From a phage: a stretch of DNA of 33,238 bases. The first letter of the stretch is position 1. Every line of letters starts with the position of its first letter. Below the pieces are notes generated by a model. It was not told the DNA's origin, made no database searches, and was given only the letters and a program-made list of their open reading frames with translations. The stretch lies in the NCBI GenBank assembly GCA_018175035.1, contig GCA_018175035.1_4099.2; one strand, given 5' to 3'. The position numbers and the translations under genes were made by a program. This document shows, piece by piece, positions 10,523 through 30,476 of the stretch.

Positions 10523-10817
10523 ATATTATCATAATTTATTCGATTACATAAAACTAATAGATGATCTTTCTTTTGACTTTCTCAGTACTGAAAAAGTTCT
10601 TGAACCTCTCTATTATGATTGTATTAGTTCACTATGTTTAGATGAAAAAGAGATATTAGCAAACAACTTACCATCCACGGTCTGTACAATCAATGGTTCC
10701 AAGGCATTAGTGTGCGAGGTTAATTTTCATAAATCACTTAATACAATTGTTTACAAGTTCGATAACACTTGGGTAAATCATGTAACCAGTAATATTAAAT
10801 CTGTGAGATTTTTATGA
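10515..10817 (+). CDS. Hypothetical small protein
   Basis: ATG 10515 (MNEYYHNL...) chosen inside track ORF 10458..10817; 8-nt overlap with upstream stop. Confidence 0.5.
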   Translation: MNEYYHNLFDYIKLIDDLSFDFLSTEKVLEPLYYDCISSLCLDEKEILANNLPSTVCTINGSKALVCEVNFHKSLNTIVYKFDNTWVNHVTSNIKSVRFL

Positions 10818-20676: not shown

Positions 20677-20704
20677 GGAATCCAGTACTGGATTCCTCTT
20701 TTTA
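20677..20704 (+). terminator. Rho-independent terminator
   Basis: Perfect inverted repeat GGAATCCAGTACTGGATTCC (centre CAGTACTG) followed by TCTTTTTATT. Confidence 0.6.
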
Positions 20705-22521: not shown

Positions 22522-22550
22522 AAAAAAGGAGCCACAAGGCTCCTTTTTTG
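22520..22550. terminator. Bidirectional Rho-independent terminator between convergent genes
   Basis: A-run, stem AGGAGCC / GGCTCCT, loop ACAA, T-run; symmetric so functional on either strand. Confidence 0.65.
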
Positions 22551-26952: not shown

Positions 26953-26985
26953 GAGTACAAGGATGTACTCATAACTCAAGGATGT
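26953..26985 (+). promoter_or_regulatory. Hairpin plus 9-bp direct repeat CAAGGATGT overlapping the PhoH ribosome-binding site
   Basis: Stem GAGTACA / TGTACTC with loop AGGA (26953-26970); CAAGGATGT at 26958-26966 and 26977-26985, second copy carries the SD. Confidence 0.3.
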
Positions 26986-26988
26986 TTT

Positions 26989-28428
26989 ATGAAAAAATAT
27001 ACAATTGACACAAACGTACTACTATCTGACCCTAATGCATCTATTGCTTTTGATGGTGCTGCAATCATTCTACCATTTACAGTACTGGAAGAATTGGATT
27101 CAATTAAGAGTCGTAATGTAGATGTTTCACGCGATGCTCGTGTTGCTATTCGTAACATTGAAGCAATTATTGCAGATGCATCACATGATGAGATTAGTAG
27201 TACTGGTGTTAATATTGCTGATGTTCATACCAATATGAATCCTGATAGCAAATTGTTTGTTATTACAAACGAAGAAGCTGAAGCACTAATTCGTACTAAA
27301 GGTTCAGAAGAGAAAGTTCAAACCCTTCTCAAAAGCACAGTACCTGATGATAAAATCATTCTGGTAGCTTTAGCAACAGAATCAGTACTGGTAACTCGTG
27401 ATATCAACATGCGTATCAAAGCACTAAGTTATGGTGTCGAGGTACAAGATTATCGCCATGATATTGTTATTGGTGATAGTGATTTGATTCACATTGGTCA
27501 ACACCATTTGGAAATTAATTTTTGGGAAGTATATAGCAACTTATCCAATACTAATATTCAATCCGAACAAGTTGGTCGTCGTTTGTATCATTACATTTCT
27601 AAAAGCTTGATTGAACATTTGCTTCCACAAAATCTATGCATCGGTGATTATCTATATGATGATGCAGACGTATTATTTGTGTACGAAGGTCAATCAGCAA
27701 TTGAGGAAGATGATGGAACACTAACACCAGAAGATATTTTGGTATTCCAAGATATTGGACAATCAGTAGCTTTACGTGCTAAAGTATGGGATATTAAAGC
27801 AAAGAATATCCAACAAGCACTCGCCATCAACAGTATTCTCGATCCTGATGTACATCTAACAGTACTGCTAGGTTCTGCTGGTACTGGTAAAACACTAATT
27901 ACGATTGCTACTGCATTAGAATTAGTACTGGAAAAACGTAAATACGACCGAATCATCTTCTCTAAAACTCAAGACTCACAGTTTGAAGATATTGGTTTCT
28001 TGCCAGGTTCAGAAGCAGAAAAAGTGATTCCATTCTGTGGAGCCGCAATTGACGCGTTAGAGTTTCTTCATAAAGATGATGCTAACCCACAAGGTAGTAT
28101 TGAAGAGATTATGAAACGTAATGTTATTCAATTTAAAGCACTAAACTTTGTACGTGGACGTTCATTCACCAACACTATTCTAGTAGTTGATGAATTCCAA
28201 AACATTACACCTGCACAAGCCAAAACAATCTTGACACGAGCAGGATTAAACTGTAAAGTAGTAATTATGGGTAACTTGAGTCAGATTGACAGTAAGTTTA
28301 TTAGTCCTGTTAACAGTGGTTTGACATATGTAACTGAGAAGTTTAAAGATTGGGCAGGTTGTCGTGTCATCGAACTAGAAGGTGTTGTTCGTTCACCACT
28401 TGCAGAATTTGCTGAAGAAAATATGTAA
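26989..28428 (+). CDS. phoH: PIN-domain PhoH-like ATPase (PhoH2/YlaK-type)
   Basis: N-terminal PIN-like region (YTIDTNVLLSDP...LEELD); Walker A GSAGTGKT, Walker B VVDEFQN; 479 aa. Confidence 0.85.
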   Translation: MKKYTIDTNVLLSDPNASIAFDGAAIILPFTVLEELDSIKSRNVDVSRDARVAIRNIEAIIADASHDEISSTGVNIADVHTNMNPDSKLFVITNEEAEALIRTKGSEEKVQTLLKSTVPDDKIILVALATESVLVTRDINMRIKALSYGVEVQDYRHDIVIGDSDLIHIGQHHLEINFWEVYSNLSNTNIQSEQVGRRLYHYISKSLIEHLLPQNLCIGDYLYDDADVLFVYEGQSAIEEDDGTLTPEDILVFQDIGQSVALRAKVWDIKAKNIQQALAINSILDPDVHLTVLLGSAGTGKTLITIATALELVLEKRKYDRIIFSKTQDSQFEDIGFLPGSEAEKVIPFCGAAIDALEFLHKDDANPQGSIEEIMKRNVIQFKALNFVRGRSFTNTILVVDEFQNITPAQAKTILTRAGLNCKVVIMGNLSQIDSKFISPVNSGLTYVTEKFKDWAGCRVIELEGVVRSPLAEFAEENM

Positions 28429-28431
28429 TAT

Positions 28432-28465
28432 TGTATGGGACATTATGTCCCATACATGATATAAT
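28432..28465 (+). promoter_or_regulatory. 25-bp near-perfect palindrome (12-bp arms) overlapping a promoter with extended -10
   Basis: Arms 28432-28443 / 28445-28456 (TGTATGGGACAT-T-ATGTCCCATACA); TGaTATAAT 28457-28465; -35 position GGGACA inside the palindrome. Confidence 0.4.
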
Positions 28466-28496
28466 GTTGTTATCATAATACAGAAGGAGATATAAA

Positions 28497-28685
28497 ATGG
28501 CTAAACAACCTAAGAAAAAAGAACCAGTAGCAAAAGTTAAGAAAGAGAAAGTTATTCAATCTAAAGAACAACGTATGTACGAACAACGTAAGAGTGAAAC
28601 CCTATCCGGTCTTCAAGCTCTACGCAAACAAGGTGTACTAACTCGTGCACAGTACCGTGAACTAGTAGCTCAGAAAGGTTTTTGA
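28497..28685 (+). CDS. Small basic protein with SHOCT-like C-terminus (tentative)
   Basis: AGGAGA SD; Lys-rich N-terminus; C-terminus LSGLQALRKQGVLTRAQYRELVAQ. Confidence 0.5.
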   Translation: MAKQPKKKEPVAKVKKEKVIQSKEQRMYEQRKSETLSGLQALRKQGVLTRAQYRELVAQKGF

Positions 28686-28704
28686 TTCATTTGAAGACAT
28701 ATTG

Positions 28705-28769
28705 TGGAGTTCTTAATAAATACTTTTATAAGAATAATAATACTTTTTATTAAATTAAAAAGAACTCCA
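28705..28769. repeat. 10-bp inverted repeat flanking a 45-nt A+T-rich segment with short direct repeats
   Basis: TGGAGTTCTT (28705-28714) / AAGAACTCCA (28760-28769); internal ATACTTTTAT and ATACTTTTTAT. Confidence 0.3.
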
Positions 28770-28788
28770 TGTGTTATTTCAGTTTTTC

Positions 28789-28816
28789 GTCCCTGTCTTT
28801 TGGCAGGGATTTTTTA
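28789..28816 (+). terminator. Rho-independent terminator
   Basis: Stem TCCCTG / CAGGGA, 8-nt loop, then TTTTTT. Confidence 0.6.
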
Positions 28817-28911
28817 TATCTATATCTTGACAAAAGGAACAAATCATGAGAACATGTATTAAAGGAAGAATGACTTTCCATTAGGTTATTTTAACTTAAA
28901 GGAGATTTCAT

Positions 28912-29469
28912 ATGTTTTTTGACCAAACATTTACGTTGTATCACGATTCTGGTAAAGTTGAGATTATTGATAATCTGTTAGAGTACATTGCGGAACATGA
29001 CGGTATAGACCGTTTCCACAGTAAGATGAAATTCGATTTAGCTGAATTCAACAAAAAGAATCGTGAAACATTTTGGAAGAACCGTTTCTATTACGAAATG
29101 TTTCCAGAAAAGTTTGTGGGTTATTATCTTTGTACTGAAAAAGGATTACTTGTATCTCCTGATTTACTTATGGGTGAATACATGATACTCTATAATGAGT
29201 ACTGGGAACATAAACGTAAAGCTCGTGATACGGAATGGCGACATAAGCGTTCGTATATGTACAAACATAACCACTCCCGATACAAGCGTCCTAAGACACA
29301 ACAAGAGCGTCGTATGGCTTGTGCAGTACTGAAGGATGAGGGGGAACCTGATATACGTGGAAGACGTAAGATGCGTTCATTACCATCGTATTGGGACGAT
29401 ATCAGAACAAGACATAGTACTGGCTGGAAATACAGTACTAAACGTAAACATCAATACAAAGGGAGCTAA
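28912..29469 (+). CDS. Hypothetical protein with Arg/Lys-rich C-terminal half
   Basis: AAGGAG SD; 185 aa. Confidence 0.6.
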   Translation: MFFDQTFTLYHDSGKVEIIDNLLEYIAEHDGIDRFHSKMKFDLAEFNKKNRETFWKNRFYYEMFPEKFVGYYLCTEKGLLVSPDLLMGEYMILYNEYWEHKRKARDTEWRHKRSYMYKHNHSRYKRPKTQQERRMACAVLKDEGEPDIRGRRKMRSLPSYWDDIRTRHSTGWKYSTKRKHQYKGS

Positions 29470-29826: not shown

Positions 29827-30476
29827 TGAAAAATGTAACTCAAGAAAAGATTCTGTACCTTGCAAAGTACAATGGTGGTTTCAATATCATTAGCCGTGAG
29901 TACAGTGGTAATTTGGCTAAGTTGATTGACAGTTTGTTAGAATTTGATTTCATTAAATGGGAAACTAATGAACTTTGGTACGAATATGCTGGTCAGAAAT
30001 GGGAAAGTGATTATGATAATGCAATACATTCATACACTATCACCAAAGCAGGTGAAGTTCGATTAGCCATTATGCGTTGTGCATATACTTACAAAAATCA
30101 TAAAGGTGAAGAAAAACATATTCGCAGAAATGAAGAGCTATTACTTCTCATGGAAGCAGCAAAAGTTACAATGCATGATTTGTTCCACCACCCACGTTGG
30201 TATGAAAATCTAACAAAAGCAGAGTACAAAGCTTTACGTTACATTGATGAACAAAACAACACCCCAGTTGAAGTTGATGATGTTAGTGATGATGAACTAA
30301 GCCTCAAAAATGTATTTGAAAGTACCAGTACTGAAAGTATTACAGACATTTCTGTACAGATGGCACTAAAAGCAATGGAACTTTTCAAGACACAATATGA
30401 AGGACACAGTGCTGAAGAAGTAGAGCGTGAGTTTATTACTCGTGTACAAATTGCGTTACATAAAAATAAAAAGTAG
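29826..30476 (+). CDS. Hypothetical protein
   Basis: TAATG overlap; 216 aa. Confidence 0.6.
   Translation: MKNVTQEKILYLAKYNGGFNIISREYSGNLAKLIDSLLEFDFIKWETNELWYEYAGQKWESDYDNAIHSYTITKAGEVRLAIMRCAYTYKNHKGEEKHIRRNEELLLLMEAAKVTMHDLFHHPRWYENLTKAEYKALRYIDEQNNTPVEVDDVSDDELSLKNVFESTSTESITDISVQMALKAMELFKTQYEGHSAEEVEREFITRVQIALHKNKK

Follow-up and report, generated by a model that had tools for sequence, protein, structure and literature searches.

A probable 3′ hairpin of a jumbo coliphage phoH-like gene built from the promoter of the gene that follows

What does a perfect palindrome do when it begins 3 nt past the stop codon of one gene and runs up to the -10 box of the promoter of the next? The palindrome at 28432-28456 of a jumbo coliphage sequence raises this question because it could be a site on DNA or a structure in RNA. 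A previous sequence-only reading had taken it for an operator bound by a dimeric repressor, possibly the small basic protein encoded just downstream, and had considered a role at the end of the upstream transcript unlikely since no U-run follows it. We conclude instead that the palindrome probably encodes a hairpin in the sense-strand RNA that closes the phoH transcript at its 3′ end, acting as a leaky terminator and/or a block to exonucleases, and that this hairpin is built from the next promoter's -35 box and spacer.

The window, by which we mean the whole stretch of 33,238 nucleotides that was analyzed, comes from an Asteriusvirus jumbo coliphage, as judged by its identity to relatives. Between 26900 and 29500 it is 99.3-99.9% identical to the Escherichia jumbo phages CRJP21, G17, slurp01 and PBECO4 and 97.8% identical to 121Q, and its remoter kin in the Rak2-like group are RaK2, GAP32, Serratia BF, 7t3, CBB and Erwinia phages. 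Nearly every gene of the window is carried by the + strand. Open reading frames were called directly in the window, and indels separate the coordinates of the G17 annotation from those used here; genome-wide counts were made on 350 kb of ECO103 4-12-1, which is 99.6% identical to the window phage.

The upstream cistron, whose 3′ end is marked by the hairpin, is a phoH-like gene (26989-28428, + strand) that encodes an N-terminal PIN domain joined to a PhoH ATPase (Pfam PhoH, 7e-44; PIN_4, 7e-20) and is annotated as PhoH-like in many relatives. Its stop codon, TAA, occupies 28426-28428 and is separated by an intergenic region of 68 nt from a small gene (28497-28685, + strand, ATG at 28497) encoding a Lys-rich protein of 62 aa (phrog_24119). 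The Shine-Dalgarno sequence of the small gene, AAGGAG, is at 28484-28489, where a ribosome-binding site is also annotated in UE-S1. The unit closes with a canonical intrinsic terminator on the + strand at 28789-28816, GTCCCTGTC-TTTT-GGCAGGGAT followed by TTTTTT (hairpin part 28789-28810), which was found by our consensus scan, is ARNOLD-annotated in G17 and is an annotated terminator in UE-S1; a Lys-rich small gene followed by a strong terminator was what the sequence-only reading had described. Two observations concern phoH itself. Its PIN+PhoH ortholog in phAPEC6, gp341c, has been listed by mass spectrometry among the virion-associated proteins (PMC7247149), a surprise given that the gene sits amid genes of nucleotide- and RNA-repair type. 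Also, the 60-nt intergenic region upstream of phoH holds a hairpin of its own at 26953-26970, GAGTACA-agga-TGTACTC, which is without a U-tract and has the tail AUAACUCAAGG.

The palindrome consists of a left arm, TGTATGGGACAT (28432-28443), a central T (28444) and a right arm, ATGTCCCATACA (28445-28456), all on the + strand, and is followed directly by TGATATAAT. It had been described as near-perfect; the palindrome is real, but the qualifier is not needed, as the arms are complementary at 12 of 12 positions. When the window was shuffled 200 times with its dinucleotides preserved, 2% of the shuffles contained perfect arms of at least 12 nt separated by 0-8 nt, at a mean of 0.02 per shuffle. 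As RNA the segment forms a stem-loop of about -16 kcal/mol (centroid -16.5), and the whole 61-nt segment has a z-score of -2.4. The window has only one other inverted repeat with perfect 12-bp arms, AAAAAAGGAGCC-acaa-GGCTCCTTTTTT at 22522-22549, which is a bidirectional terminator beside the window's only minus-strand genes and overlaps the stop codon of a minus-strand gene.

As had been proposed, the palindrome lies over a promoter with an extended -10, of which it covers the -35 box and the spacer. The -35-like hexamer, GGGACA (28437-28442, + strand), falls within the hairpin's left arm and loop, with 17 nt between it and TATAAT, and the extended -10 element TGATATAAT (28457-28465; hexamer 28460-28465) has its TG at -15/-14. 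The promoter scan lists this GGGACA-17-TATAAT site with 10 of 12 matches plus the TG, and transcription of the small gene is predicted to start near A28472. TGATATAAT is invariant across the Asteriusvirus variants, and every relative examined has a TATAAT -10, mostly with TG. Is GGGACA a genuine -35? Its distance of 17 bp is within the 16-18 bp of a sigma70-type promoter, and it belongs to a recurrent class: four further promoters in the window combine [G/T]GGACA or GAGACG, at 16-17 nt, with TGATATAAT (TG starts at 2715, 11434, 13684 and 19137). In the 350 kb of ECO103 4-12-1, TGnTATAAT occurs 94 times against about 50 expected, and GGGACA is the commonest hexamer at the -35 position of those 94 sites. 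Twenty of the sites have a good -35, and all 20 are on the strand that carries 522 of the 585 genes (89%). The class, (a/t)tGGGACA-N16/17-TGATATAAT, numbers about 12 per genome, and every copy is on the main coding strand. Because GGGACA recurs in this strand-biased manner, the left arm holds a genuine sequence-constrained promoter element, whereas the right arm is promoter spacer, which would normally be free and in the other GGGACA-class promoters is not conserved in sequence.

Is the palindrome maintained in related phages? Within Asteriusvirus conservation does not extend to the two pairs of the 12-bp arms that are nearest the center, and only a 10-bp stem, TGTATGGGAC/GTCCCATACA (28432-28441 with 28447-28456), is retained around a variable loop (28442-28446). 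The window has TGTATGGGAC ATTAT GTCCCATACA; the loop is ATAAT in 121Q, ECO103 and ELP-22, AATAT in ph0011 and ATATC in JP4; UE-S1 has aGTATGGGAC GTACT GTCCCATAC, EC.P1 has TGTATGGGAC ATTC GTCCCATACA, and WPEC5 and TH47 have TGTGTGGGAC ATTC GTCCCATACA. Thus there are six versions of the loop (ATTAT, ATAAT, AATAT, ATATC, GTACT and ATTC) in two lengths, and a right arm that is invariant in 8 variants. Seven of the 10 stem pairs are invariant, one change turns an A-U into a G·U pair, and there are no double changes, so that covariation within this group is simply uninformative and the conservation of the stem is equally compatible with a protein site. These data bear on whether the palindrome has any function at all, as it could be the quasi-palindromic product of a template switch, or a decayed terminator whose U-tract was lost when the promoter moved in, and be harmless in either case. 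The lack of a U-tract and of any double compensatory change within Asteriusvirus fits such an origin, and the sequenced Asteriusvirus genomes are so closely related that invariance over 10 nt is not extreme. We nevertheless consider a functionless palindrome unlikely, because the stem has stayed constant while loop and flanks diverged freely in the same genomes, and because of two further observations given below, the independent hairpins in other phages and the strand bias of hairpins that contain promoters.

The proposal of a DNA operator, in which a dimeric repressor (the small protein, another phage protein or a host factor) would bind the 12-bp half-sites and occlude the -35 and spacer, has obvious attractions. 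A perfect 25-bp dyad lies exactly over those elements, its right arm does not vary in the 8 variants although promoter spacers normally drift, and among the dozen or so GGGACA-class promoters of the genome only this one has a strongly complementary spacer. A regulator of this kind would, however, be expected to have other sites, and the half-site ATGTCCCATACA gave only the two self-hits of the palindrome in the window and in the 350 kb of ECO103 4-12-1. Elsewhere in the 350 kb it was matched with one mismatch 3 times (1.6 expected) and with two mismatches 35 times (28.6 expected); the search for further copies that had been suggested as a check on the operator therefore yielded none beyond chance. 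Similarly, a BLAST search of the 38-mer against 50,697 phage records returned the orthologous site only, the two places per record being read as the palindrome matching itself on both strands, which fits the single locus in the 350 kb. Fixed spacing of the half-sites is also absent from the orthologous sites, the 10-bp arms being 5 nt apart in the window, 121Q, JP4 and UE-S1 and 4 nt apart in EC.P1, WPEC5 and TH47, a difference that a rigid dimer would not tolerate.

The candidate autoregulator fared no better. We found no HTH, RHH or other DNA-binding domain in the small protein with Pfam and PHROGs and no relative in the PDB; there was a sub-threshold SHOCT-like match (E = 0.013), and its PHROG is of unknown function. 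In addition, the protein is 87-89% identical in A4, Turkey5 and JNE01, phages in which the palindrome is absent or replaced by hairpins with unrelated arms. Autoregulation by the small protein was rejected on the strength of the domain searches together with this constancy, and for an operator in general neither a cognate DNA-binding protein nor a regulon emerged from the 350 kb, Pfam, PHROGs or the PDB. The substitutions of G·U type, which are found on one strand only (see below), are also not what an operator would predict. With a half-site unique in 350 kb, variable spacing and unrelated hairpins in its place, we regard an operator as quite unlikely, even allowing that it could coexist with an RNA hairpin as the LexA site does at yobI/ruvA, which is a precedent for a transcription factor reusing a terminator palindrome (bioRxiv 10.64898/2026.08.19.745784). 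As to the protein itself, the conserved core of the family is L..LR..G.LTR.Q.R...KG, and the 62-aa form is a truncated version of a family of 80-98 aa in other Rak2-like phages: in Asteriusvirus it ends at ..KGF/Y and is without the C-terminal ~35 residues (..GSTKGSPLITTYEVVKQGKKKVLEVKTQQWTRI).

Two other candidates were set aside. Host operators of LexA, CRP or Fur type were considered by eye and rejected. The LexA box has the consensus CTGT-N8-ACAG, and inspection by eye showed no such spacing in the palindrome. Translational masking of the kind found in T4 was rejected as well: the stem ends at 28456, and both the Shine-Dalgarno sequence (28484-28489) and the ATG (28497) are outside it. With 28 nt between the stem and the Shine-Dalgarno sequence, the hairpin leaves the ribosome site free, and the minimum-free-energy fold of the intergenic region leaves that sequence unpaired.

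What, then, is conserved at this position in more distant phages? A hairpin follows the phoH stop in every Rak2-like relative examined, in most of them directly and in Turkey5 and A4 about 30 nt downstream. In GAP32, 7t3, EJP2 and Hallingskeid the phoH hairpin has a U-tract and is a standard terminator, and RaK2 has a GC hairpin without one. In Turkey5 and A4 the -35 is the canonical TTGACA, and the hairpin is a different one whose arms stand on either side of the -10, GCGTCCAT-gctata-ATGGACGC in the former and GTGTTCAT-tgctata-ATGAACAC in the latter; the two versions are set apart by two double changes from C-G to T-A. Inverted repeats can also acquire compensatory changes mutationally, by template switching, and such changes therefore weigh less here than they would in ordinary RNA helices. 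The most instructive case is JNE01, in which a gene for a 426-aa CapR-domain protein (Pfam PF21817, 3.5e-24; L019 1676-2956, OR670491.1 38375-39655) separates phoH from the small gene. An unrelated 8-bp GC hairpin, GGAGTGCT-ttttat-AGCACTCC, stays with phoH, 9 nt after its stop, and the promoter of the small gene has no GC hairpin, only the AT-rich repeat TTTTGT-ag-ACAAAA. What keeps its position is a hairpin right after phoH, and its sequence is free to change. That phoH is followed by a hairpin in all these relatives, and often by a U-tract as well, speaks against the earlier dismissal of a transcript-end role, and that non-homologous hairpins arose independently in the same slot in Turkey5/A4, JNE01 and other genera is the first of the two observations that count against a functionless palindrome. 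Different genes have also been inserted at the phoH/small-gene junction in 7t3, Hallingskeid and Serratia BF, and the junction looks like an insertion hotspot.

A second kind of hairpin complicates this picture. Short hairpins lie over the -35 of the small gene's own promoter in 7t3, EJP2, Hallingskeid and the environmental contigs L031, L033 and L038, in the forms TTTGGG-acaaa-CCCAAA, ATTGAG-acaaaa-CTCAAT, GTTGGG-acaaac[a/g]-CTCAAC and TTGGG-acaaa-CCCGA. Pairs in these distant promoters were tabulated by script, as MAFFT misplaced the arms because loop length varies, and scans of IMG/VR and metagenomes for the small protein enlarged the set by no more than about six loci. One pair runs from G-C through G·U to A-U across the lineages, the loops are 5-7 nt, and the stabilities are -4 to -6 kcal/mol. 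In 7t3, L031, L033 and L038 the hairpin comes right after the stop of whatever gene precedes, while Hallingskeid and EJP2 have kept it though phoH has a separate terminator further upstream. The latter two hint at something specific to the promoter beyond the 3′ end of phoH and leave some room for a promoter-specific role.

What form might such a role take? One possibility is a structure of the promoter DNA itself, a cruciform or hairpin extruded by supercoiling, or read by a phage sigma70-like factor, that tunes firing. A short inverted repeat on the orthologous -35 in several genera, present despite a separate phoH terminator, would fit this. So would the fact that these phages encode a sigma factor, CBB and GAP32 having sigma70-like ones (PMC5259590), and that ‘divergent RpoD-like’ promoters with a non-canonical -35, TGAAACG, are described for CBB and GAP32 (PMC5259590; also PMC13070987), predicted promoters that our GGGACA class resembles. 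Against this, most promoters of the same class are without such a repeat, the distant repeats are weak at -4 to -6 kcal/mol, those of 7t3, L031, L033 and L038 directly follow an upstream stop as a 3′ hairpin would, and G·T wobbles favor a single-stranded sense structure over a symmetric duplex or cruciform; we hold an intrinsic DNA structure to be very improbable. The other possibility is a dedicated switch at the small-gene promoter, in which the folding of read-through RNA, or a factor binding the palindrome, would couple upstream transcription to firing, perhaps with a dual terminator/operator function as for LexA at yobI/ruvA. The idea owes its place to the retention of the -35 hairpin across several genera, with its G-C, G·U and A-U versions, even where phoH has a separate terminator, and we think it improbable.

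The wobble pairs deserve a comment of their own. All three internal non-Watson-Crick pairs (in WPEC5/TH47, in 7t3/L033 and in L038) are G·U when the sense strand is read and would be A·C if the antisense strand were read instead. With three events this bias is weak, as it would arise in about 1 in 8 cases by chance among transitions, although it does agree with a putative RNA or sense single-strand structure and not with a protein site on duplex DNA.

Could the hairpin behind phoH then be an intrinsic terminator? Its stem of 10-11 bp, with 4-5 G-C pairs depending on the register, and its loop resemble those of intrinsic terminators, for which a stem of at least 5 bp and a loop of 3-8 nt suffice. 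The tail after the stem, UGAUAUAAU (tested as UGAUAUAA), has 3 U in its first 8 nt and does not form the usual U-tract of about 5 or more U in the 8 nt directly after the stem, and the absence of a downstream U-run had been correctly recorded. Neither our consensus scan of the window nor ARNOLD in the G17 record called the palindrome a terminator, and no family came close to its gathering score when 28300-29000 was scanned with Rfam at E<=1. Given the missing U-tract and two silent predictors, efficient intrinsic termination by E. coli RNA polymerase is doubtful, and the hairpin may only stabilize the transcript or make the polymerase pause.

We therefore return to the preferred reading, that the palindrome is the 3′ hairpin of phoH fused to the next promoter. 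With an intergenic region of only 68 nt, the hairpin has been made out of the promoter of the next gene: the left arm would be provided by the constrained -35 box GGGACA and the right arm by spacer sequence shaped to complement it. Transcripts reading out of phoH would form the hairpin of about -16 kcal/mol, which would stop part of the polymerases and/or guard the phoH mRNA against 3′ exonucleases, shortly before the start predicted at ~28472 is reached. Transcripts from the small-gene promoter would begin past the hairpin and would not contain it. We infer from the arrangement of these elements that the promoter fires and that RNA ends fall at the hairpin, by termination or by stabilization; our literature search found no Asteriusvirus transcriptome or promoter mapping and no data on transcript starts or ends.

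There is a close bacterial parallel for such an arrangement. Fletcher, Forrest ... Grainger mapped RNA ends and reported hundreds of ‘promoter-coupled terminators’ in A. baumannii, E. coli and B. subtilis, in which the DNA of the stem-loop coincides with the -35 and the T-tract precedes the -10 (bioRxiv 10.64898/2026.08.19.745784). The peak of termination is some 10 bp ahead of the next start, coupling to the promoter makes termination more efficient, and one terminator palindrome, that of the yobI terminator/ruvA promoter, doubles as a LexA site (bioRxiv 10.64898/2026.08.19.745784). Like these terminators, the phage stem-loop overlaps a -35 on the same strand between tandem genes with a short intergenic region, and its predicted 3′ end at 28463-28465 (7-9 nt past the stem) would, by its geometry, be ~7-9 nt before the predicted start at ~28472, in agreement with the bacterial peak at roughly 10 bp. 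Unlike them, it has no T-tract before the -10, the stem ending at 28456 and the TG starting at 28457; the setting is a phage genome, and the -35 is the variant GGGACA. By analogy the phage element may work like a promoter-coupled terminator or a 3′ hairpin, and we do not file it as a canonical member of the former class.

Other comparisons are similarly mixed. The palindrome resembles the Rho-independent terminators of the group (28789-28816, and those after phoH in GAP32, 7t3, EJP2 and Hallingskeid) in its position after a stop, its stem of 9-12 bp, its loop and its stability, and differs from them in having no U run after the stem. REP-type elements and the intercistronic hairpins of T4 are stable 3′ hairpins that block exonucleases. 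The palindrome shares with them a strong hairpin that follows a stop immediately and has no U-tract, and one clade of relatives has the tetraloop C-AUUC-G; unlike them, it is not part of a repeated sequence family and it overlaps a promoter. With palindromic operators such as the LexA box at ruvA it has in common the dyad symmetry and the position on a promoter, but its half-site spacing varies, its wobbles are strand-specific, and no regulon or cognate protein was found for it in the 350 kb or with Pfam, PHROGs and the PDB.

If a hairpin can be fused to a promoter once, has this happened elsewhere in the genome? The main coding strand of ECO103 4-12-1 has 195 strong hairpins, 14 of which include a -35 in the stem or loop with a -10 close behind, compared with 2 of 147 on the other strand, both of them weak cases. 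The counted cases have TTGACT, TTGACA, GGGACA or GGGATA as the -35, a -10 that starts no earlier than 2 nt before the end of the stem and no later than 6 nt past it, and a spacing of 16-18 nt. This strand bias, 14 versus 2, is the second observation that argues against a palindrome without function. Among the 14 are a repeated family, AAAGGGATTGACTCCGGTCAGTCCCTTT-GC-TATTAT, and the textbook AAAGGTTGAC-TTCG-GTCAGCCTTT-TTTGT-TATAAT. Hairpins with few U are also not exceptional: for 101 genes with a same-strand hairpin just after the stop, the next 8 nt have at least 5 U in 57, 4 U in 18 and at most 3 U in 26. The phoH element is one member of a recurrent design, and its peculiarity is that the stem abuts an extended -10 and has no T-run. 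The near-identical copies of the embedded promoters, AAAGGG(A)TTGACTCCGGTCAG(T)CCCTTT-GC-TATTAT together with the TTCG form, have TTGACT as the left arm plus loop of a terminator-like stem, and are found on the minus strand of OR844650.1 at ~302.4, 305.2, 308.4 and 311.9 kb (L026) and at ~5.2-11.3 kb (L020).

If our reading is true, Rak2-like jumbo coliphages make a routine of joining the hairpin at the close of one transcription unit to the -35 and spacer of the promoter that follows, as the 14 cases in the related genome suggest, and the promoter-terminator coupling of bacteria would extend to phages. The natural variants, some of which have a U-tract and others not, and whose hairpin covers the -35 or surrounds the -10, would then be of use for probing the mechanism of coupling. 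There is also a warning for annotation, in that a palindrome overlapping a promoter is not always an operator. The phoH palindrome is otherwise ordinary, a single copy with no associated regulator and no bearing on the function of the small protein.

Two further features of these genomes came to our attention. The palindromic hexamer AGTACT is about 8-fold over-represented, with 96 copies in the window (11 expected; examples are at 10584-10591, 20683-20690 and 30326-30333) and 918 in 350 kb (OR844650.1, L020-L026; 119 expected), and the most frequent 8-mer of the genome is CAGTACTG, with 204 copies. Paired copies of AGTACT form the stems of several hairpin-embedded early promoters (CAGTACTAT..ATAGTACTG), and terminators of RaK2, 7t3 and EJP2 also have the hexamer in their loops or stems.

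The second feature is a non-coding block of ~100 nt that separates the small gene from the next one (28686-28815 in the window) and is nearly identical in DNA across genera in which the flanking proteins are 33-45% identical. It was located in L013 (~1150-1265), L015 (~640-775), L014, L016, L017, L031, L033, L035, L036 and L038, and it is present in GAP32 even without the small gene. The block reads ..AACAACAT TGATAAATAATGTTATAAcAATAATAACATTTTTGACTCCATGTTGTT.., and after it comes a GGCCAC/GTGGCC terminator in which one change is compensatory. Rfam gave no match to the block. The version in the window has diverged (..TAATAAATACTTTTATAAGAATAATAATAC..AACTCCATGTGTTATTT) and lies inside a long inverted repeat, 28705-28769. 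Its conservation makes the block a candidate small RNA, 3′UTR element or promoter.
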